Source of the DNA: a virus
Lineage: Duplodnaviria > Heunggongvirae > Uroviricota > Caudoviricetes
Direction: 5' to 3' (one strand)
IMG/VR virus record: IMGVR_UViG_2541047163_000014
Length of the DNA: 10,732 nt
The notes below the pieces were generated by a model, which was not told the DNA's origin, did not search any database, and was given only the letters and a program-made list of their open reading frames with translations. A program made the translations under genes and the position numbers. Shown piece by piece: positions 1 through 10,732 of this stretch (position 1 is its first letter; each line of letters begins with the position of its first letter).

Positions 1-68
1 CGCACTGACGGTTTCATCGTGGGTGTCGGTTATAAGTTCTGATTAGCCAGGTAACACAGTGTTATGAC

Positions 69-96
69 AGCCCGCCGGTTCAGGCGGGCTTTTTTG
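69..96 (+). terminator. Rho-independent terminator (8-bp GC-rich stem AGCCCGCC/GGCGGGCT, 6-nt loop, followed by TTTTTT) ending the upstream off-window gene
   Basis: Perfect inverted repeat agcccgcc-ggttca-ggcgggct followed by a T6 run, read directly from the sequence immediately upstream of the tail fibre start. Confidence 0.75.
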
Positions 97-106
97 TGGG
101 GTGAAT

Positions 107-3022
107 ATGGCAGTAAAGATTTCAGGTGTACTGAAAGACGGCACAGGAAAACCAGTACAGAACTGCACCATTCAACTGAAAGCCAGACGTAACAGCGCCA
201 CGGTGGTGGTGAACACGGTGGCCTCTGAAAATCCGGATGAAGCCGGTCGTTACAGCATGGACGTTGAGTACGGTCAGTACAGCGTTATTCTGTTGGTGGA
301 AGGGTTCCCGCCGTCACATGCCGGGACCATCACCGTGTATGAAGATTCTCAACCCGGTACGCTGAATGATTTTCTTGGTGCCATGACTGAGGATGATGTC
401 CGTCCGGAGGCACTGCGCCGTTTTGAGCTGATGGTGGAAGAGGTGGCGCGTAACGCGTCCGCGGTGGCACAGAACACGGCAGCCGCGAAGAAGTCAGCCA
501 GCGATGCCAGCACATCAGCCCGTGAGGCGGCAACCCATGCGACTGATGCTGCGGACTCAGCACGCGCAGCCAGCACGTCAGCCGGACAGGCCGCGTCGTC
601 GGCTCAGTCAGCGTCTTCCAGCGCAGGAACGGCATCAACAAAGGCTACTGAAGCATCAAAAAGTGCTGCCGCTGCAGAGTCCTCAAAAAGCGCGGCGGCT
701 ACCAGTGCCGGTGCGGCGAAAACGTCAGAAACGAATGCGGCAGTGTCACAACAATCAGCCGCCACTTCTGCATCCACCGCGACCACGAAAGCGTCAGAAG
801 CTGCCTCCTCAGCCAGGGATGCGTCGGCTTCAAAAGAGGCGGCAAAATCATCAGAAACGAGCGCAGCCTCGAGCGCCAGTAGTGCAGCCTCCTCGGCAAC
901 GGCGGCAGGCAATTCCGCGAAGGCGGCCAAAACGTCTGAGACAAACGCTAAGTCCTCTGAAACGGCAGCAGAACAGAGTGCCTCCGCAGCAGCAGGCTCA
1001 AAAACAGCGGCTGCATTATCTGCCAGTGCCGCGTCAACAAGTGCCGGGCAGGCCTCAGCCAGTGCCACCGCCGCCGGAAAATCGGCAGAAAGTGCCGCAT
1101 CGTCTGCTTCAACAGCCACAACGAAGGCTGGCGAAGCCACTGAACAGGCCAGCGCAGCAGCGAGTTCTGCTTCCGCAGCGAAGACATCCGAAACGAACGC
1201 GAAAGCGTCGGAAACCAGCGCAGAATCCTCAAAAACGGCTGCCGCATCGTCAGCCAGTTCGGCGGCGTCATCGGCATCATCTGCGTCTGCTTCAAAAGAT
1301 GAGGCGACCAGACAAGCGTCAGCAGCGAAGAGCAGCGCCACGACGGCATCCACGAAGGCGACAGAGGCAGCTGGTAGTGCGACGGCAGCAGCTCAGAGCA
1401 AAAGTACGGCGGAATCTGCAGCAACGCGCGCTGAGACAGCGGCAAAACGGGCAGAGGATATTGCATCCGCCGTGGCGCTTGAGGATGCGAGCACGACGAA
1501 AAAGGGGATAGTACAGCTCAGCAGTGCGACTAACAGCACTTCCGAGTCACTGGCGGCAACGCCAAAAGCCGTTAAGGCCGCGTATGAGCTGGCTAACGGG
1601 AAATACACCGCACAGGATGCAACGACAGCACAGAAAGGGATAGTTCAGCTTAGCAACGCGACCAACAGCACATCTGAAATGCTGGCGGCAACGCCAAAGT
1701 CGGTAAAGGCAGCCTATGACCTTGCTAACGGGAAATATACTGCTCAGGACGCTACGACAGCACAAAAAGGAATTGTCCAGCTCAGTAGTGCAACCAACAG
1801 CGCATCTGAAACGCTTGCCGCGACACCGAAAGCAGTGAAAGCAGCTAATGATAATGCGAATGGTCGGGTACCTTCTGCCCGTAAGGTGAATGGTAAGGCG
1901 CTTTCATCGGATATAACACTGACGCCGAAAGATATTGGTACGCTTAACTCAACAACAATGTCATTCAGCGGTGGTGCTGGTTGGTTCAAATTAGCAACGG
2001 TAACCATGCCACAGGCGAGTTCTGTTGTTTCAATTACGTTGATTGGTGGCGCGGGATTTAACGTGGGGTCACCTCAACAGGCAGGTATATCTGAACTTGT
2101 TTTGCGTGCAGGTAATGGTAATCCGAAGGGGATTACTGGTGCTTTATGGCAGCGCACATCGACAGGGTTTACAAATTTTGCCTGGGTCAATACATCTGGT
2201 GATACTTACGATATTTACGTTGCAATCGGAAATTATGCGACTGGTGTAAATATTCAATGGGATTATACCAGTAATGCCAGCGTGACGATTCATACGTCAC
2301 CAGCATATTCTGCTAATAAGCCGGAAGGGTTAACGGACGGTACAGTTTATTCACTCTATACGCCATCAGAGCAGTTTTATCCGCCTGGCGCACCAATCCC
2401 GTGGCCATCAGATACCGTTCCGTCTGGCTATGCCCTGATGCAGGGGCAGACTTTTGACAAATCTGCATACCCGAAACTTGCAGCCGCTTATCCGTCAGGC
2501 GTGATCCCTGATATGCGTGGCTGGACGATTAAGGGCAAACCTGCCAGTGGTCGGGCCGTATTGTCTCAGGAACAGGACGGCATTAAATCGCACACCCACA
2601 GCGCCAGCGCATCCAGTACGGATTTGGGGACGAAAACCACATCGTCGTTTGATTACGGCACTAAATCCACGAATAACACCGGGGCGCACACGCACAGTGT
2701 GAGCGGTACAGCCGCAAGTGCCGGAAACCATACTCATAGTGTCACAGGCGCATCAGCAGTCAGCCAGTGGTCACAAAATGGGTCAGTACATAAGGTAGTG
2801 TCTGCGGCCAGTGTGAATACAAGTGCTGCAGGAGCGCACACTCATAGTGTCAGCGGCACAGCTGCATCTGCAGGTGCTCACGCACATACTGTCGGTATTG
2901 GTGCTCATACGCACTCTGTTGCGATTGGCTCACATGGACACACCATCACCGTTAACGCTGCGGGTAACGCGGAAAACACTGTCAAAAACATCGCATTTAA
3001 CTACATTGTGAGGCTTGCATAA
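107..3022 (+). CDS. stf: Side tail fibre protein, lambda Stf / StfR-like (the ORF track starts at GTG 101; ATG 107 giving [12 protein letters not shown] is the more likely start)
   Basis: N-terminus [26 protein letters not shown]...[34 protein letters not shown] matches the lambda Stf N-terminal domain as I remember it. It is followed by a long Ala/Ser/Thr-rich low-complexity shaft, three tandem ~42-aa repeats ([42 protein letters not shown]) and a C-terminal module with His-x-His repeats ([15 protein letters not shown]...) ending [11 protein letters not shown], typical of Stf / P2 gpH / T4 gp37-type fibre tips. GGGG lies upstream of the ATG. Confidence 0.93.
1490..1850 (+). repeat. Three tandem ~126-bp coding repeats (42-aa units) within stf
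   Basis: Protein-level triple repeat [43 protein letters not shown] / [44 protein letters not shown] / [30 protein letters not shown]. The DNA copies differ mostly at synonymous positions. Confidence 0.8.
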
Positions 3023-3600
3023 TGGCATTCAGAATGAGTGAACAACCACGGACCATAAAAATTTATAATCTGCTGACCGGAACTAATGAATTTATTGGTG
3101 AAGGTGACGCATATATTCCGCCTCATACAGGTCTGCCAGCAAACAGTACCTATATTGCACCGCCAGATATTCCGGCTGGCTTCGTGGCTGTTTTCAACAG
3201 TGATGAGGCATCGTGGCATCTCGTTGAAGATCATCGGGGTAAAACGGTTTATGACGTGGCTTCCGGCGACGCGTTATTTATTTCTGAACTCGGTCCGTTA
3301 CCGGAAAATGTTACCTGGTTGTCGCCGGATGGAGAGTGTCAGAAGTGGAACGGCACATCCTGGGCGAAAGATGCAGAAGCAGAAAAACTGTTTCGGGTAC
3401 GGGAGGCAGAAGAAACAAAAAACAGCCTGATGCAGGTAGCCAGTGAGCATATTGCGCCACTTCAGGATGCCGTAGATTTGGATATTGCGACGGAGGAAGA
3501 GGCATCGTTACTGGCTGCATGGAAGACATATCGGGTATTGTTGAATCGTGTTGATACAACAGTAGCAGCGGATGTTGAGTGGCCAGTCGCCCCACAATAA
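3022..3600 (+). CDS. tfa: Tail fibre assembly protein (Tfa family chaperone)
   Basis: 192-aa product directly downstream of stf, with the ATG overlapping the stf TAA stop (TAATG). The sequence ([49 protein letters not shown]...EWPVAPQ) resembles lambda/Rac-type Tfa proteins, and the position is the canonical one for a fibre chaperone. Confidence 0.88.
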
Positions 3601-3606
3601 AAAGAA

Positions 3607-3636
3607 AAAGCCATCGACAGAAATATCGATGGCTTT
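3607..3636. terminator. Bidirectional intrinsic terminator between convergent tfa (+) and the acetyltransferase gene (-)
   Basis: 11-bp perfect stem aaagccatcga / tcgatggcttt with an 8-nt loop. T-rich tracts flank it on both strands (CTTTTTCTTTTTATT on the - strand, TTTATGT on the + strand). Confidence 0.75.
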
Positions 3637-3643
3637 ATGTACT

Positions 3644-4216
3644 CTATTTATACAATACAACACCACTCTTTTTAGTTATATATGTGCAGTTTGATGGTAT
3701 ATCTTTATTTATAAAAGACATTGCACCTATTTTTACATTATCCCCAATTTTACGTGATAATCCAATGATGCAACAATTAGCTCCGATATCAACGTTACTA
3801 CCAATTTTTACTCTTGAACTAGGCATATCACCATCTATCTGTCCAATGGTAGTATTCTGTCGTAATACCAGATTTTCACCCGCATCAACAGCAAAATGAA
3901 CAACAATTCCAGCATGATGGGGAATTGTCAACCCTTTTCCAATATTTGCGCCCAATCCTATTTCACAACCAAACTTGTTAATTATTTTACTGTTTAACTT
4001 TTTGGCTGCTTTCTTATGTAATTTATTACCATTAATATACATTTCGTTAGCCAACCGCCACCAGAAAAGGAAATTCCGGTTACGCTGCTTTTTCTCTCTT
4101 AAAAGCCTCCAGATATCCATACGTTTCCGCCGAATTACTTCATGTTTCCAGAAGTTTTTTAAATTAGTAGAGTTTCCAAATAAAACAAAGTGAATTGCCA
4201 TTAAGTAAGATAGCAC
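3644..4216 (-). CDS. Hexapeptide-repeat (left-handed beta-helix) acetyltransferase, serine-acetyltransferase (CysE/WcaB)-like; AT-rich moron. Start probably GTG 4216 (AAGGAG 6 nt upstream) or ATG 4201; the ORF-track GTG at 4249 is less likely
   Basis: Translation contains the SAT-family core ...FWWRLANEMYINGNKLHKKAAKKLNSKIINKFGCEIGLGANIGKGLTIPHHAGIVVHFAVDAGENLVLRQNTTIGQIDGDMPSSRVKIGSNVDIGANCCIIGLSRKIGDNVKIGAMSFINKDIPSN. That is an amphipathic N-terminal helix segment followed by [LIV]-G-x-x-x-x hexapeptide repeats. G+C is strikingly low (roughly one-third by eye) compared with the flanking phage genes. Stop is TAG at 3644-3646. Confidence 0.8.
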   Translation of the reverse strand: MLSYLMAIHFVLFGNSTNLKNFWKHEVIRRKRMDIWRLLREKKQRNRNFLFWWRLANEMYINGNKLHKKAAKKLNSKIINKFGCEIGLGANIGKGLTIPHHAGIVVHFAVDAGENLVLRQNTTIGQIDGDMPSSRVKIGSNVDIGANCCIIGLSRKIGDNVKIGAMSFINKDIPSNCTYITKKSGVVLYK

Positions 4217-4267
4217 GATAATCTCCTTAATTATTATTTCAGACCACACATGTTATAAGGTTAAGAG

Positions 4268-4296
4268 ATTATAAAATCCTGTTATTTGTTATTCAA
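4268..4296 (-). promoter_or_regulatory. Near-consensus sigma70 promoter for the acetyltransferase gene (-35 TTGAAT, 17-bp spacer, -10 TATAAT on the - strand)
   Basis: Read on the - strand: TTGAAT-AACAAATAACAGGATTT-TATAAT, about 50 nt upstream of the AAGGAG ribosome-binding site and GTG 4216. Confidence 0.6.
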
Positions 4297-4372
4297 AAAC
4301 AATTTTCTGAGAAGGACATACAACAGCAAGTCGCCAGTCACCTTCATCAGGAAATTGGCGACATACGTTAAA

Positions 4373-4867
4373 TCAGAGCAGCCCCTTAACTGAGCTGGCC
4401 GCGCTATTAAGGGATGATGTCACCTTATCTTTGAAGCCGGACAGCATATCGCTGAACGATGAGGATTGCAGGCGCTCCCGCAAATCCTCATCACAGCGTT
4501 CAAGAGTCAGTGAAAATTCTATCTTTTTCGCCTTACCGTAGCGATCAAACTCGGAGCGGGTCGTATTCGTTCCGGTCAGGACATACATGCCGTAAATCTG
4601 CCCGACGCCATCAATCAAAGGCCAAGGACGTCCTGTATATGCCTGCGTGGTCAACAACGACAGCGACACTTCGCCACCAGTAATCTCAGGATAAAGAACA
4701 CCAGAAAGAACGATGCGATCATCACCTGCACCGATATACTGCCAGCTTGCTGAACGGTTAACGCGTTCATTTTTCACATGTCGCCAGCTTTTGTTTTGCT
4801 GTAACTGCTGATGCGGCAACGTGCGCAGCTCAAAAACAAACATGCCGTAGATCATCATCATGGCCAT
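4373..4867 (-). CDS. Phage tail protein, P2 gpU-like (true start may be one of the ATGs at 4861/4858 rather than 4867)
   Basis: Translation MAMMMIYGMFVFELRTLPHQQL...IVLSGVLYPEITGG...IYGMYVLTG...KIEFSLTLERCDE... matches the conserved gpU family pattern. It lies immediately downstream of the tape measure stop, as in the P2 FI-FII-E-T-U-D order. Confidence 0.85.
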   Translation of the reverse strand: MAMMMIYGMFVFELRTLPHQQLQQNKSWRHVKNERVNRSASWQYIGAGDDRIVLSGVLYPEITGGEVSLSLLTTQAYTGRPWPLIDGVGQIYGMYVLTGTNTTRSEFDRYGKAKKIEFSLTLERCDEDLRERLQSSSFSDMLSGFKDKVTSSLNSAASSVKGLL

Positions 4868-4873
4868 GACTCC

Positions 4874-5710
4874 TCAATCTTTATCGTAAAAACTGCCACG
4901 CCTGGCACGGGCGCGCCGTTCCATTTCTGCCCTGACCATTTCGCCGACCAGTTTCGCCAGTTCGCGGGGATTCTGCGTAACAACGTTATGCAGATGAACA
5001 TGAATTTCACCGCCAAATCCGGAGGCAACAGGCTCCCGGTTACGGGAAGTTGCAGGAACTGATGCCACTGGCGATCGTATGGCCTCCACCACCGGGCGGG
5101 AGCTGGCCGCAACAACAGGGACCAGCGCCGGAGGCAGCGGAGCCGGGACCACGGGTGTGATATTAATTGCGGGGGCAGGCTTACTGACCTGCGCAATCTT
5201 CCGCTCCTGCCACTCCCCACGAACAGCAAGTGCGCGGGGCAGGTTCTTAAAGACAATATCGCCGGGGCCAATGCGTTTTTTTGTCTCATCAACCAGCTTA
5301 CCTGTGTTATCAGCAATTTTGCTGAGTCTGCGTAGCGTGCCGGTATTGCTGTCTGTGAGAGGTTTGTTGTCTTTGGGTTTATCATCTCCGGTGCCATTGC
5401 TATTTCCCGCAGACTTCGGCGGATTGATTTTCGCAATGTCTCCCTGAAACAGAGCAACCTTGTCCTGAAGAATGGCCGCACGTTGTGCGTCTTCGATTTT
5501 CTTGCGCGCCCTTTCCGCTTCATCCGGAAGCACACCGAGTTTTTCAAGTATCCACGCCAGCGTATCCAGCAACATTTTTGCAGGCGTCAGAACAAGCTGT
5601 AACGCACCACCAAGAACGTTACCGAATACCTCGCCAGCACTGGTACATTTATCCAGCGTTTCCTTGCTGGACTCCATCGGTGACAGCAGCGATTTAAACC
5701 AGTTAAACAC
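4874..5710 (-). CDS. Tail tape measure protein, C-terminal about 280 codons in a different frame (continuation of the gpT-like gene after the apparent frameshift)
   Basis: This ORF overlaps the 3' end of the 5587..7713 ORF in another frame. Its sequence (FNWFKSLLSPMESSKETLDKCTSAGEVFGNVLGGALQLV...) continues naturally from ...FERFGPVFDVIGSG if one base is restored near 5719-5721. It ends 6 nt before the gpU start. P2-type operons have no separate gene between T and U. Confidence 0.75.
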   Translation of the reverse strand: MFNWFKSLLSPMESSKETLDKCTSAGEVFGNVLGGALQLVLTPAKMLLDTLAWILEKLGVLPDEAERARKKIEDAQRAAILQDKVALFQGDIAKINPPKSAGNSNGTGDDKPKDNKPLTDSNTGTLRRLSKIADNTGKLVDETKKRIGPGDIVFKNLPRALAVRGEWQERKIAQVSKPAPAINITPVVPAPLPPALVPVVAASSRPVVEAIRSPVASVPATSRNREPVASGFGGEIHVHLHNVVTQNPRELAKLVGEMVRAEMERRARARRGSFYDKD

Positions 5711-7713
5711 CTGGCTGAACCGCTTCCGATTACGTCAAAAACAGGGCCAAACCGTTCAAAGGTGTCGCGCAACGGGGTCAGCCTTTCCATAATCCCGCTG
5801 AACACCCCGGCAAAGAAAGCCCTGATAGGATCCCAGTATTTCCAGATAAGAACGGCAGCTCCGGCAAGCGCAGCCACGATAAGACCAACCGGACTGAACA
5901 ACGCCCCGATAACGCCTCCCAGTAAAGAAACGGAACCCGTCACCATTCCCCATAGCGCAGGTAACACCCTGACGACATTCATTGACCGGGTAAGAATGTC
6001 AAAACCAAGACGCAGGGTGGCCAGCTTCCCGTAAAGCACCCCAATAACCAGCGACAACGAGCCAATCGTTGCAGTCATTGCCAGCAACGCACCGCCTGCT
6101 ATCAGTAGCTGGCGCGTCAGTACCGGATGGGCCTGCGCCAGCGAGGTGATTTTTTCAAGCACCCGCGTGAGCCACTGCGTGACAGAACGCAGCGGACCGT
6201 CAACCAGATCACTGATGCGAATACGAAGACCTTCCCATGCGCTGTCGAGATTTTTCAGGTCCCCATCAAGATTATCAGCCATTACTTTTGCGACGCGATC
6301 GGCCTCTCCCCTTGCCCCCTGCAATTCTCTGGTCAGTTTTTGCAGCTCTCCTGAACCAGCCGCCGCAACAAGCGTCTGCAAACCAACGAACGCCTCTTCT
6401 CCGGCGATGTCCTTGAAGAAGGAGACCTGGTCCACCTGTCCGTATTTTTGTGTCGCCTTATAGAGATCAAGCAGCACATCCTCCATCGGGCGCATTTTGC
6501 CTCTGGCGTCAGCAACTGACACCCCCAGCTCTTTCAGTGCATCAGCCGCAGCTTTTGGCGGTGATGCAAGGCGGGACAGACTTGCGCGCATGGCCGTGCC
6601 AGCATCGCTTCCGCGAAGACCATTATTGGCAAGCATCCCGGCCATGGCCGCCGCTTCTTCAAGACTGATACCAAGTTTTGCGGCAACCGGACCGGTATAC
6701 TTCATGGTTTCGCCCAGCGCGCGTAAATCAGTATTGGTCCGGGTAAATGCTGCTGTCAGCGTATCGCCCACCCGGTCCATTTGATCGGCTGTCAGGTTGA
6801 ACTGTGTGAGGATATTGGAGCCTATATCAGCCGTCTCGCCGAGTTCGACGCCACCTGCCAGCGCCATATTAAGAACACCGGGCAATGCGGCCTGAATGGC
6901 CTGCGGAGTAAAACCAGCCATTGCCAGAAAGCTCTGCCCACTGGCGGCATCACTCGCAGTAAACTGTGTTTCAGCAAGTTTTAACGCCTGCTCACGCAGC
7001 GCCTTAAACTGCGGGCTGTTTTTGTCGATTCGCGTCAGTGCCTGAACGCGGGACATCTCTTTGCCGAACCCGATCGCAGGCTGCAAAAAACGCCCGGCAG
7101 CATAGCCGCCCGCCGCTGCCGCACCAATTGCCAGCGCACCACCTGTTTTCAGTTTTCCCGCGGTTTCCTGCGCGTGCGAATACCGCTCACGCGCCTGCGT
7201 TACACGCGCAAGCGCCTGCCGTTCGCGTTCAAGCTGGTTGTTGTATTGTTCGGTGCGTCTGATGGCCTGCTGAATGGTGTTATCGCTGCCTGTCAGGGAA
7301 ATGCCGTGGCGTTTCAGCTCTCCGCCAAGTTCCCTCATTTTCTGAATTTCCCGTGTGCGCGATTCATTCAGGCGTTCAAGCCGGGTGCTTAACTGCTGCA
7401 TCAGCTTTTGTTGTTTTTCGCTGAGCACTGTACCCGTGCGTTGTAACTGATTAAGGGCGTTAAGCTGGCGTCGTGCTTTCACGATGCCAGCATCCGCTTT
7501 ACTGACAGCGTCGCGGGCGCGCTCAAATGATCGCGCCTGACGCTCGAGATTTTTGATCGCCCCCTGCGTTCGCTGGATGGAGTCACCAAACTGCCCCATC
7601 AGGCGGCGTGCGTTTTCGGCAGGTCGGGTCAGCCTGTCAACGGCGCTGAAAGCGACCCGGATATCAAGAGTCTTCATTGTCTGCATTCCCGCTGCGAAGT
7701 GCCGCCCGCTCAC
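5587..7713 (-). CDS. Tail tape measure protein (P2 gpT-like), N-terminal about 660 codons; the reading frame breaks near 5715-5740 (likely start ATG 7677 or 7686 rather than GTG 7713)
   Basis: Long, helical, Ala/Leu/Gln/Arg-rich protein with a hydrophobic Gly-rich segment (LIAGGALLAMTATIGSLSLVIGVLYG...GGVIGALFSPVGLIVAALAGAAVLIW) typical of tape measure proteins, positioned between E' and U. The last ~45 residues of this ORF (SARCLTGLNRCCHRWSPARKRW...) look like out-of-frame translation. Confidence 0.8.
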   Translation of the reverse strand: MSGRHFAAGMQTMKTLDIRVAFSAVDRLTRPAENARRLMGQFGDSIQRTQGAIKNLERQARSFERARDAVSKADAGIVKARRQLNALNQLQRTGTVLSEKQQKLMQQLSTRLERLNESRTREIQKMRELGGELKRHGISLTGSDNTIQQAIRRTEQYNNQLERERQALARVTQARERYSHAQETAGKLKTGGALAIGAAAAGGYAAGRFLQPAIGFGKEMSRVQALTRIDKNSPQFKALREQALKLAETQFTASDAASGQSFLAMAGFTPQAIQAALPGVLNMALAGGVELGETADIGSNILTQFNLTADQMDRVGDTLTAAFTRTNTDLRALGETMKYTGPVAAKLGISLEEAAAMAGMLANNGLRGSDAGTAMRASLSRLASPPKAAADALKELGVSVADARGKMRPMEDVLLDLYKATQKYGQVDQVSFFKDIAGEEAFVGLQTLVAAAGSGELQKLTRELQGARGEADRVAKVMADNLDGDLKNLDSAWEGLRIRISDLVDGPLRSVTQWLTRVLEKITSLAQAHPVLTRQLLIAGGALLAMTATIGSLSLVIGVLYGKLATLRLGFDILTRSMNVVRVLPALWGMVTGSVSLLGGVIGALFSPVGLIVAALAGAAVLIWKYWDPIRAFFAGVFSGIMERLTPLRDTFERFGPVFDVIGSGSARCLTGLNRCCHRWSPARKRWINVPVLARYSVTFLVVRYSLF

Positions 7714-8193
7714 GCCAGCTAACCACTTCGCCGGGCGTCATCATGAAGATTTCGGCGGGCGACCAGTTAAAAATAACGGCAATATCTGCCACAAAGTCTT
7801 CTATGTGCTCAAAGCACACAACCGTGATCAGGCTTCCGTCGCCTGTTCGTTCTTCCCGCCAGAGTCCGCACCGCTCAAAAAATTTACGGCAACCACACAT
7901 AACTGAATAAAGTCACGGGATGCCATTTTTTTGATCGTCACTTCATCCAGTCGCGGTGATGTCACGCGTGACAGCAGCGTAAACATGGATTCCGCTTTCA
8001 GATTCAGCACATCAGACAGCGACAAATCTCGCAGAGATCCAGCCTGCTCAATAGCCCCGGTGATCTCCACATACGTGATTTTTTCGCCGCCTCGCTCAAT
8101 TGGTTGGGTAAGTTTTACACCACGCTCACTGGTTTCTTTCACAGTGTCAGTAACTACCGTGTTTTCGGTATCGATGTTTTTCGTCTCTTTCAT
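7664..8193 (-). CDS. gpE+E'-like fusion product made by programmed -1 translational frameshift (E' extension 7664..7875 in the -1 frame)
   Basis: A -1 frame ORF (7664..7900) overlaps the end of E. On the - strand the sequence AAT TTT TTG contains the slippery heptamer T TTT TTG. The -1 frame continues ...KFFERCGLWREERTGDGSLITVVCFEHIEDFVADIAVIFNWSPAEIFMMTPGEVVSWRERAALRSG, resembling the conserved E' tail. Confidence 0.75.
7828..8193 (-). CDS. Tail assembly chaperone, P2 gpE-like
   Basis: 121-aa ORF between the tube and tape measure genes, with AAGGAG 7 nt upstream of the ATG. The C-terminus ...CVVAVNFLSGADSGGKNEQATEA spans the slippery heptamer. Confidence 0.8.
   Translation of the reverse strand: MKETKNIDTENTVVTDTVKETSERGVKLTQPIERGGEKITYVEITGAIEQAGSLRDLSLSDVLNLKAESMFTLLSRVTSPRLDEVTIKKMASRDFIQLCVVAVNFLSGADSGGKNEQATEA
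7876..7882 (-). other. Slippery heptamer TTTTTTG (- strand) for the E/E' -1 programmed ribosomal frameshift
   Basis: + strand caaaaaa at 7876-7882 is TTTTTTG on the - strand, in X XXY YYZ register with the E frame (AAT TTT TTG). Confidence 0.75.
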
Positions 8194-8247
8194 CAGGAAA
8201 CTCCTTTCAGTCAGAGGCGACGCACTGCGCCGCCTGCATATTACTTA

Positions 8248-8760
8248 TCAGCCAAGCCCAAGCGCGGAACGGATGCGATCGGGCACAATGTCCTTGCCGT
8301 CCTTCCGGTAAATGAAGTTCAGCAGGTCAATCTCCCACAACGGGCGATCGTTAACACTCAGCTTGTAGTAGGTGTTTTTAATGGCGTAAGTGTGTGATGT
8401 GGCTTCGCCCTGTTTGGCTTCCCCCATATCAATTTCCGTCACACGTCCGCGCATTTCGACTTCATACAGGTCGCTTTCATCATCGGTGTAGTATTCCCCC
8501 GCAAAACGCAGTAGCGTGCCGTCAATCGTGCCGCCATACTTCAGGAACAGCTCACGAACTGCGCCCCCCATGACAAAGCTCGCATCAAGCGCGGAGTCGT
8601 CCAGGCCGAGGTCAATACTTACCGCACCCATCATGCCACCACCCCGGTAGCTGTCGGTTTTGCGCGTCAGTTTAGGCAGGGTGACGGACGTCACCTTACC
8701 CACTTCGTTTTCACCATCCACAAACAGCGTAAAAAAGCGAAGATGTTTTGGTACAGCCAT
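8248..8760 (-). CDS. Tail tube protein, P2 gpFII-like
   Basis: Translation MAVPKHLRFFTLFVDGENEVGKVTSVTLPKLTRKTDSYRGGGMMGAVSIDLGLDD...YYKLSVNDRPLWEIDLLNFIYRKDG matches the FII tube family pattern (RFFTL.VDG...YRGGGM...YYKLS...EID). The start overlaps the sheath stop (ATGA-type coupling). Confidence 0.9.
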   Translation of the reverse strand: MAVPKHLRFFTLFVDGENEVGKVTSVTLPKLTRKTDSYRGGGMMGAVSIDLGLDDSALDASFVMGGAVRELFLKYGGTIDGTLLRFAGEYYTDDESDLYEVEMRGRVTEIDMGEAKQGEATSHTYAIKNTYYKLSVNDRPLWEIDLLNFIYRKDGKDIVPDRIRSALGLG

Positions 8761-9944
8761 CAGGCACCTCCCAGCACCGCAAATGCGGGACCAAAGAATT
8801 CATCAGTAAACGACTGGTAAAGCTCCATGTCTTCCAGCGGAGGAACGGGCGTATATTTGTAGCGAATACGCACACGCCCCTGACGTAAATTCGTGGTGCT
8901 GTTATCCTCGATGTCATACCAGCACTCCGCGCCAATCAGTTTCCCGGCAGTAACCAGTGAATCCAGTTTTGCCCTGATGGCACTGATAACATCCTTCACG
9001 TTCGCAGGTGTCAGTGGACTGTCGATGGTTTCAAACTGCGCTTCCGCAATTGAATCAGCCAGCACCTGTGCGGTTCGGGTATACACCTCAAAGATGTAGG
9101 CGTTCGTTTCCGGTGTGCGGTTGCCCCAGAAGCGGAACCCGTTGCGACGAATAATGGTCGTGATTTCTTTGTTGTTGAGGCTGTTGGCATCACTGTCTTC
9201 GGCCTGCAACGACCAGAACACATGCCTCGACATCCCAAGCACATTTTTAACCGGAACGTTGGACAGCGATTTGTGCCAGCCCTGCTCATGGTCAATGTAC
9301 GCACGAAGGCCGCACGCATAAGCAGGCGCGGGGAACGTTTCGTTTTTGCCACTTTTCAGGTTGTAGGCGATGAAGTCAGGCCATAAGAGCATCACCTCAC
9401 GTTCGTTGAATTTCTGGCGGTAGGTAATCGCCTCAGCCATCGTGTTACAACCATGACATGTGGCATACACAAACGCGCGCAGTTTACCCGCAATCACGCA
9501 CAGGGATTTTGTTACCGCCTCCGTGTCCAGCTCCGGCGCGGCCAGAATACGCGGACGGTATCCGATGCTTTCATCCTGCTCTGCAACAAGCAGCGCATAC
9601 ATCCCCGTATAGCTGCCGTCAGATTCAGAACCACCGATAACCAGTTGATCCTGCGTCTTACCGCCTTCTTCTTTGTGTTCAGCCACGCGAACGACGATCA
9701 CTTTTGTGCTCACCTGGTCTGCGATAGCCTTAAGCGCACGATAAAGCGTCCCCGTAGTCCCGCATTTTCCCAGCACGTCATTGACGCGGGTCAGCAGTGT
9801 GGGCTTGTTCAGCGGGAACAGCTCCGCGTCCGCATCATCTGCCGTTGCCACGATACCGATAACACTGGAATCAACATCATTAATCGCTGTTACCAGGTCG
9901 GTACTTTCCGTAACACGGGCACCATGAAAACGAGTTTCACTCAT
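8760..9944 (-). CDS. Contractile tail sheath protein, P2 gpFI-like
   Basis: 394-aa product (MSETRFHGARVTESTDLVTAINDVDSSVIGIVATADDADAELFPLNKPTLLTRVNDVLGKCGTTGTLYRALKAIADQ...) resembling P2 FI-family sheath proteins. AAGGGG ribosome-binding site 8 nt upstream of the ATG. It lies immediately upstream of the tube gene. Confidence 0.9.
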   Translation of the reverse strand: MSETRFHGARVTESTDLVTAINDVDSSVIGIVATADDADAELFPLNKPTLLTRVNDVLGKCGTTGTLYRALKAIADQVSTKVIVVRVAEHKEEGGKTQDQLVIGGSESDGSYTGMYALLVAEQDESIGYRPRILAAPELDTEAVTKSLCVIAGKLRAFVYATCHGCNTMAEAITYRQKFNEREVMLLWPDFIAYNLKSGKNETFPAPAYACGLRAYIDHEQGWHKSLSNVPVKNVLGMSRHVFWSLQAEDSDANSLNNKEITTIIRRNGFRFWGNRTPETNAYIFEVYTRTAQVLADSIAEAQFETIDSPLTPANVKDVISAIRAKLDSLVTAGKLIGAECWYDIEDNSTTNLRQGRVRIRYKYTPVPPLEDMELYQSFTDEFFGPAFAVLGGA

Positions 9945-10101
9945 AGCTTCAGCCCCTTGTATCCGTTAAATGATTCGGCAACAATCATCACCCACCACGC
10001 GCGTAATCTCACCCCTGCGCCGTTCTCCCGCCACGGCGACAACAAAAAGCAGTAACCCCCTCCGCACGCACATGCGACCATGCCGCACAGGGAGGGAACA
10101 G

Positions 10102-10368
10102 ATGACCGACACCACCATGCAATTGCTCAGTCAGGGCACAGACCACGTGAAAGTGCCGGATTTTGATATTCTCGCGGAGGGTAAAACGCTGTCAGGCGTG
10201 GCAGAGCGCCTGATGAGCCTGTCACTGACCGACAACCGGGGATTTGAGGCGGACCAGCTCACCATCACGCTGGATGATGCAGATGGTCAGTTGCAGCTAC
10301 CGCCACGGGGCGCGCGCCTGACGGTTCTCATTGGCTGGAAAGGAGAACCGCTGACAGAAAAAGGCACT
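10102..10368 (+). pseudogene. P2 gpD-like tail protein (late control gene D family), N-terminal ~90 codons only; truncated by IS insertion
   Basis: From ATG 10102 (GGGAGGGA upstream): MTDTTMQLLSQGTDHVKVPDFDILAEGKTLSGVAERLMSLSLTDNRGFEADQLTITLDDADGQLQLPPRGARLTVLIGWKGEPLTEKG, which contains the gpD-family N-terminal signature (LSLT.TDNRGFEADQL.I.LDD.DG...PRRGA.L...GW.G). The frame then runs into IS terminal inverted-repeat sequence at about 10369 and stops. Full-length gpD is about 390 aa. Confidence 0.75.
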
Positions 10369-10519
10369 TGTAGATTCAATCTGTCAATGCAACACCCCTT
10401 TCAATTATCTCTTTCGGTGTTTTGAACTTCAGTGTCTTTCTCGGTCTGTTGTTTAGCTGAGCAGCAACCAGATCTTCATGTTGAGTATATTGGGCAAGAC
10501 ATGTCTTTTTAGGAAAGTA
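10369..10519 (-). mobile_element. IS30-family insertion sequence, terminal fragment (inverted repeat plus the last ~47 codons of the transposase gene)
   Basis: TGTAGATTCAATCTGTCAATGCAACACC at 10369 closely resembles the IS30 terminal inverted repeat (TGTAGATTCAAT.GGTCAA.GCAAC) as I remember it. The - strand encodes ...YFPKKTCLAQYTQHEDLVAAQLNNRPRKTLKFKTPKEIIERGVALTD-stop, with the stop inside the inverted repeat, as in IS30-family transposases. The fragment ends abruptly at the IS3-family end. Confidence 0.7.
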
Positions 10520-10732
10520 TGAACCGCCCCGGTTTTCCTGGAGAGTGTTTTATCTGTGAACTCAGGCTGCCAGATCATCGTTTCCGATGGAAGCATAATA
10601 AGCTTTTTCTGCTTCTGCCGGAGGAGTATGGCCCAGCCTTCCCAGCAATCGTCGATTGTTATACCAGTCCACCCACGTTAGTGTGGCCAGTTCCACTTCT
10701 GCACGGTTTTTCCAGCTCTTACGGTGTATTAC
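10520..10732 (-). mobile_element. IS3-family element (IS629/IS1203-like), terminal inverted repeat plus 3' end of transposase orfB; continues beyond the window
   Basis: The end sequence TGAACCGCCCCGG... is a typical IS3-family terminal inverted repeat (TG...). The - strand encodes ...VIHRKSWKNRAEVELATLTWVDWYNNRRLLGRLGHTPPAEAEKAYYASIGNDDLAA-stop (stop at 10562-10564), a typical IS3-family orfB C-terminus. Confidence 0.75.

Follow-up and report, generated by a model that had tools for sequence, protein, structure and literature searches.

The DNA studied here, a stretch of 10,732 nucleotides referred to as the window throughout, carries a contractile-tail operon of a P2-like element on its minus strand. 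Genes for tail sheath FI (8760-9944) and tail tube FII (8248-8760) were assigned as open reading frames and from the RefSeq annotation of the identical sequence in Escherichia coli O157:H7 strains Sakai and EDL933. Both are situated upstream of the tape measure gene T in the same operon. They are followed by tail chaperone gene E (7828-8193) and its E' extension, for which reading in frame gives a stop codon at 7666-7664 (7664..8193 overall) and a match of the E' part to PF06528 (Phage_P2_GpE, E=7.3e-13 in Pfam). T itself (4874..7677) thus lies between the frameshifted chaperone pair and the gene for tail protein gpU (4373..4861), which is located directly downstream and was identified by annotation and by PF06995 (Phage_P2_GpU, E=1.5e-38). 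FI, FII, E/E' and U are all still intact open reading frames. On the plus strand, annotation and sequence comparison revealed a 5' fragment of gpD (late control D family, 10102..10368) that is cut off by a copy of IS30, and this copy is in turn interrupted by IS629/IS1203 from position 10520.

T is not covered by a single reading frame. As already pointed out in the initial annotation, and as is evident from the list of open reading frames and their translations, two minus-strand frames of 708 amino acids (5587..7713) and 278 amino acids (4874..5710) overlap out of phase. The starts at 7713 and 5710 are mechanical calls, and the annotated start of T is the ATG at 7677 (RefSeq). From there, the N-terminal frame comprises 696 codons (5587..7677, minus strand), which encode 653 native residues followed by 43 out-of-frame residues up to a TGA at 5589-5587; it runs ...FERFGPVFDVIGSG and continues SARCLTGLNRCC... 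until the stop. The C-terminal frame (4874..5734, minus strand) is open for 286 codons from position 5734, where it directly follows a TGA (5737-5735). From about 5718 on, it codes for the last ~281 residues of native T, and it reads ...FSQVFNWFKSLLSPMESSKE... to the end of the gene. The translation of the N-terminal frame shows a coiled-coil N-terminus, the tape-measure core and hydrophobic segments. It matches PF10145 (E=7.6e-55, 186 bits vs a cut-off of 33.2, Pfam) and TIGR01760 (E=1.9e-84, 283.7 bits vs a cut-off of 28.8, NCBIfam), such that membership in the tape-measure family is given by two curated profiles. The C-terminal fragment alone did not match any family in Pfam or NCBIfam, because the C-terminal part of tape measure proteins is poorly conserved. 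Both frames are pieces of a single P2-type tape measure gene (gpT) of 2804 nt, as compared with 2808 nt in intact orthologues. An uninterrupted open reading frame for 935 amino acids, as present in functional relatives, is not found in the window. The frame breaks at 5719-5721, and the window's T is therefore a pseudogene of the tape-measure family rather than a functional member.

Alignment of the window's T to intact orthologues allowed the break to be defined at the level of single bases. It falls at codon 654, at 5719..5721 on the minus strand and thus where it had been placed initially. An ancestral GGGATC has been converted to GGTTC, i.e., one base is lost and an adjacent A at 5719 is replaced by T; where the ancestral sequence reads GGAAGCGGGATCAGCC, the window features GGAAGC-GGTTCAGCC at 5719-5721. 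The change destroys a GATC site. The ancestral protein comprises 935 amino acids and reads ...VIGSGISQVFNWFKSLL..., in agreement with the proposal that one added base restores a continuous protein and close to the length of about 940 residues estimated for it. The description as a single-base frameshift holds for the lost base; owing to the accompanying A>T exchange the lesion is, however, not a clean single-base loss. A second lesion, which the initial annotation had missed, is an in-frame deletion of 3 bp (GCT) on the minus strand between 6974 and 6975, where the PF10145 domain begins. It replaces Gly-Ser by Ala at residues 235-236 and turns KLGSETQ into KLAETQ.

The region from 4300 to 8300 of the window is 100% identical to the chromosomes of E. 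coli O157:H7 strains including Sakai, EDL933, TW14359 and EC4115 (megablast), and over the whole 2840-nt T region the O157:H7 genomes listed likewise show 100% identity. In Sakai, the match spans positions 3067-10519 with four mismatches, all of them at 3076-3202, while 3203-10519 is identical. The locus is annotated there as "prophage Sp13, P2-like phage" and the gene as pseudogene ECs_2640. Its counterpart in EDL933, EDL933_RS14220, is listed as "phage tail tape measure protein, frameshifted", the respective gene of strain F7349 is also annotated as frameshifted, and the terms "pseudogene" and "frameshifted" are used by RefSeq. Once mapped to 4874-7677 of the window, the genes from Sakai and EDL933 are identical over their whole length including the lesion. 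The flanks of the window differ from Sakai. On the left, the sequence passes at tfa into a lambdoid tail-fibre locus, and on the right, IS629 resides inside IS30. Strain F7349 agrees with the window at the right end but not at the left. Comparison of the annotation with strains LSU61 and 493/89 shows what IS629 and IS30 events have removed in Sakai-type strains: the genes for head, lysis and baseplate, the greater part of the tail fibre gene, ogr and the C-terminal part of D. Sp13 has been described as devoid of most morphogenetic genes, with one morphogenesis function scored defective, and as unlikely to propagate or to help Sp2 (Asadulghani et al., 2009, PMC2669165). The same study found that excision, replication and low-level packaging persist in Sakai after mitomycin C, and Sp13 is therefore not completely inert. 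It had been stated that truncation of T would abolish tail assembly. This is a reasonable inference, but the point is academic given that most morphogenetic genes are missing from Sp13 in any case (Asadulghani et al., 2009, PMC2669165).

Comparison with the orthologous locus in related strains, as envisaged in the initial annotation, led to intact versions of the gene. O157:H7 strain LSU61 and O157 strain 493/89 harbor an orthologous complete P2-like prophage at the same chromosomal site (leuZ-cysT-glyW/pgsA) with an intact T of 2808 nt (935 aa), and a closely related prophage with an intact T of 2808 nt is present in O55:H7 strain DEC5B. The 493/89 gene (WP_000853407.1) is a single open reading frame of 2808 nt to which the window's copy is identical except for the frameshift lesion and the GCT deletion; the alignment contains zero other substitutions, and inactivation must therefore be recent. 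The closest functional relative of the prophage is Escherichia phage P88 (Peduoviridae, Xuanwuvirus). It shares the gene order FI-FII-E-E'-T-U with a divergent D, and its T (AIZ95153.1) belongs to the same family (TIGR01760/PF10145) with 90% nucleotide identity. While T of P88 is a single 2808-nt open reading frame, that of the window is broken at codon 654 and short of one codon at 235-236. At a query cover of at least 80%, related T genes were detected in 1,368 E. coli genomes. Those fetched are single open reading frames of 2805-2808 nt, and this holds true for all ten full-length T genes that were fetched with annotation and inspected for their frame layout.

These relatives also bear on the idea that the two frames now represent separate functional genes, either a tape measure divided into two proteins or a shortened N-terminal protein that has been exapted by the host. 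In the N-terminal frame, the TIGR01760/PF10145 core is preserved in full, as are the hydrophobic segments, and the remaining tail operon is still open. Nevertheless, a split T is not seen in any of the relatives examined, full-length genes with annotation being single open reading frames in 10/10 cases, and homologues thus do not bear out the notion of two genuinely separate genes that had been considered at the outset. We found no evidence for independent translation of the C-terminal frame, and the GTG start listed for it is a mechanical call. When this fragment was compared with phage genomes by tblastn, it fell inside a single annotated tape-measure gene in most of the best-matching records, with 95-96% identity to P88 and its relatives, while a few of the best-matching records are unannotated or carry the names 'hypothetical' or 'Phage protein'. 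Direct inspection of P88 showed the fragment to be the 3' end of that phage's single tape-measure open reading frame of 2808 nt. A split into two genes was rejected on these grounds. Furthermore, a sister sublineage has destroyed T in a different way (see below), arguing against selection for any part of it, and we consider separate functions for the two fragments extremely unlikely.

The distribution of the lesion is decisive for the question of whether it is a sequencing or assembly indel, in which case the true genome would contain an extra base and a continuous 935-codon open reading frame. The lesion adjoins a short run of G (GGG to GG), and some platforms are prone to miscalls at such places. 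In addition, the left end of the window is an unusual chimeric junction that was found in no complete genome, and the quality of the window's assembly is thus not vouched for. However, 264 complete E. coli genome records, which come from many laboratories, contain a 61-mer across the frameshift without any deviation and always on the chromosome, and none of the O157:H7 records sampled departs from it. The lesion is therefore not confined to one or a few assemblies while missing from independent ones. It had already been recorded in the curated annotations of Sakai, EDL933 and F7349, and a homopolymer miscall would not yield the A>T substitution that is part of it. The ancestral allele, represented by a 62-mer, is present in exact form in 26 records and confined to distinct, older or separate lineages; the O157 strains among them are LSU61, 493/89, PV15-279 and F3113. 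An artefact, one of the two alternatives offered in the initial annotation, thus has a practically negligible probability. The matter is settled in favor of the other alternative, pseudogenization in a decaying, IS-riddled element, by the 264 independently assembled complete genomes, by the annotations of Sakai, EDL933 and F7349 and by intact orthologues in older O157/O55:H7 lineages and in P88.

Strains PV15-279 and F3113, both O157:H7, contain the prophage at the same site. They have kept GGGATC but share the 3-bp deletion, and the GCT deletion is thus older than the frameshift. In these strains, the first 492 nt of T have been lost together with FI, FII and E beside a copy of IS1203/IS629, and T of strain F3113 carries an added nonsense mutation. 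The inactivation of T in PV15-279 and F3113 is an independent decay of the same gene. The 3-bp deletion being common to both sublineages, the order of events was deletion of 3 bp in the common ancestor followed by independent inactivations in the sublineages. Such a pattern of lesions across lineages rules out an assembly error and fits relaxed selection in a decaying prophage. Taken together, we assign a probability of about 95% to the interpretation that the window contains the tail module of Sp13/CP-933T, a defective P2-like prophage (P88-type, Peduoviridae) of E. coli O157:H7, and that its T is a genuine pseudogene fixed in the lineage.

It could be argued that full-length T is still made by recoding. 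With one base lost, a -1 shift rejoins the two frames, and both are open over a zone of 145 nt (5734-5590). This zone contains a T_TTA_AAT heptamer (5692..5698, minus strand), which conforms to X_XXY_YYZ in the phase of the N-terminal frame and is the only in-phase motif of this kind there. Slippage by -1 at this site (5698-5692) would result in an uninterrupted product of 934 amino acids with nine substituted residues (654-662). Several observations speak against a designed signal. In-frame X_XXY_YYZ heptamers occur three times in 695 codons, while about 2.7 are expected by chance, and the bases of T_TTA_AAT exist because the intact gene encodes Trp-Phe-Lys (TGG TTT AAA TCG) at this position. 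Folding of the 92 nt downstream of the heptamer revealed no stimulatory RNA structure as compared with 200 shuffled sequences (z = -1.1; 26/200 shuffles at least as good), and the two-frame layout is not conserved, as 10/10 full-length relatives fetched with annotation have one frame. In E. coli, heptamers without a stimulator increase frameshifting 2-10-fold over a background of ~0.055% (PMC4066793), which is a general range and not specific for U_UUA_AAU; the yield at T_TTA_AAT would therefore be about 0.5% or less. In the light of the chance frequency of the heptamer, the lack of structure in the downstream region and the single-frame relatives, programmed -1 frameshifting in T was rejected. 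T_TTA_AAT is regarded as accidental, and continued synthesis of full-length T by slippage at this site is highly unlikely. Transcriptional slippage was also dismissed, since the sequence does not contain an extended tract of A/T at the lesion or close to it.

The true frameshift site of the operon resides elsewhere. The -1 frameshift leading from P2 E to E+E' represents a conserved tail-chaperone frameshift of dsDNA phages and is located directly upstream of the tape measure gene (PMC3091744). It likewise involves a two-frame overlap, and its genuine T_TTT_TTG is present in the window in the right phase, matching the P2 site described in the literature (PMC3091744). The motif is intact at 7882-7876, in phase with gene E (ATG 8193), while the -1 frame, which stops at 7664, codes for the GpE domain. 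The P2-type E/E' signal belongs to the chaperone gene, precedes the start of T by about 200 nt and is conserved in relatives, whereas the break in T lacks a conserved signal and is missing from relatives. The assertion that programmed frameshifting is not known to give rise to tape measure proteins fits the literature consulted, in which the conserved -1 frameshift belongs to the chaperone gene directly upstream (PMC3091744).

On this reading, a small complex mutation from GGGATC to GGTTC at codon 654, with one base gone, occurred in an ancestor of Sakai/EDL933-type O157:H7. Ribosomes starting at ATG 7677 would keep to the native frame up to residue 653, translate 43 aberrant codons and terminate at 5589-5587, and the last 281 native residues would no longer be made as part of T. 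The in-frame 3-bp deletion (Gly-Ser to Ala, residues 235-236) predates the frameshift, which constitutes one step of ordinary mutational prophage decay. Through IS629- and IS30-associated events, the element had by then lost, or was in the process of losing, its genes for head and baseplate, the late activator ogr and the C-terminal part of gpD. We infer that functional full-length T is no longer made and that the gene is under relaxed selection; a truncated 696-aa product or a trace of frame-restored protein may still be formed. Conceivably, accidental low-level -1 slippage at U_UUA_AAU (5698-5692) could furnish traces of a tape measure of 934 aa in which nine residues are altered and, together with intact FI, FII, E/E' and U, leave the Sp13 tail module marginally competent. 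If so, this competence could come into play, for instance, upon complementation by the Sp2-borne homologue of ogr or by a P2-like phage entering the cell. We give very little credence to this scenario. The intact flanking genes FI, FII, E/E' and U are equally well explained by recent decay (two lesions and zero substitutions vs 493/89).

That T is frameshifted was already known from its annotation as a pseudogene, and as such the case is ordinary. What our analysis adds is the exact lesion, the older 3-bp deletion, the order of events and the independent inactivation in the sister sublineage. As the lesion confirms, Sakai/EDL933-type O157:H7 has a dead Sp13/CP-933T tail module, a result of little significance beyond bookkeeping. 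GGTTC vs GGGATC in combination with the older 3-bp deletion makes up a clean marker for ordering prophage decay along the O55:H7 to O157:H7 lineage, the GGTTC allele separating Sakai/EDL933-type strains from those of the PV15-279/F3113 type, which inactivated T differently. The locus thus provides a textbook case of one gene being independently pseudogenized in a domesticated or decaying prophage.

The frameshift that inactivates the tape measure gene T changes GGGATC to GGTTC at window positions 5716-5721 (minus strand), and a Dam site, GATC, is lost through it. The mutation is a compound event consisting of a deletion and a substitution rather than a simple homopolymer slippage. The tail chaperone genes E/E' (7664-8193, minus strand) feature an intact programmed -1 frameshift of the P2 type (E/E+E') with the slip site T_TTT_TTG at 7882-7876, and E' has been annotated by PGAP as a separate 51-aa 'GpE family' ORF and not as a fusion.

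The genes from FI to D are collinear in P2. The P88-type group differs from this arrangement in that the FI-FII-E-T-U block, encoding among others tail sheath (FI) and tail tube (FII), resides on the strand opposite to gpD and the baseplate and fibre genes, as found in the prophages of O157:H7 LSU61 and O157 493/89 and in phage P88. As P88 is a functional phage, the opposite-strand arrangement is therefore a normal feature of the genus. A serine O-acetyltransferase-like gene with hexapeptide repeats is situated between tfa and gpU (3644-4216, minus strand) and represents moron-like cargo. It is kept in the intact prophages of LSU61, 493/89 and O55:H7 DEC5B, whereas phage P88 carries a DNA invertase in its place.

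At the left end, positions 1-3293 are 99.9% identical to a lambdoid-prophage locus for tail fibre and tail fibre assembly that is present at other sites of O157:H7 chromosomes, while identity with Sp13, the P2-like prophage of O157:H7, extends rightwards from position 3203. The junction falls between 3202 and 3293, with the crossover lying within the tfa gene common to both sides. It was found in none of the complete E. coli genomes of the collection searched and reflects either strain-specific inter-prophage recombination or inversion, or else a chimeric assembly.

At the right end (10369-10732), gpD is cut off at about position 10369 by an IS30 element, which is itself interrupted from 10520 by IS629/IS1203. 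O157:H7 strain F7349 carries this nested insertion with 100% identity, but Sakai and EDL933 lack it. The IS30 insertion in gpD is common to 493/89 and Sakai-type strains and is not present in LSU61; only a partial IS30 is left in the gpD region of PV15-279/F3113, representatives of another O157:H7 sublineage. This distribution could bear on the order in which these lineages branched off, or could be a sign of recurrent insertion.
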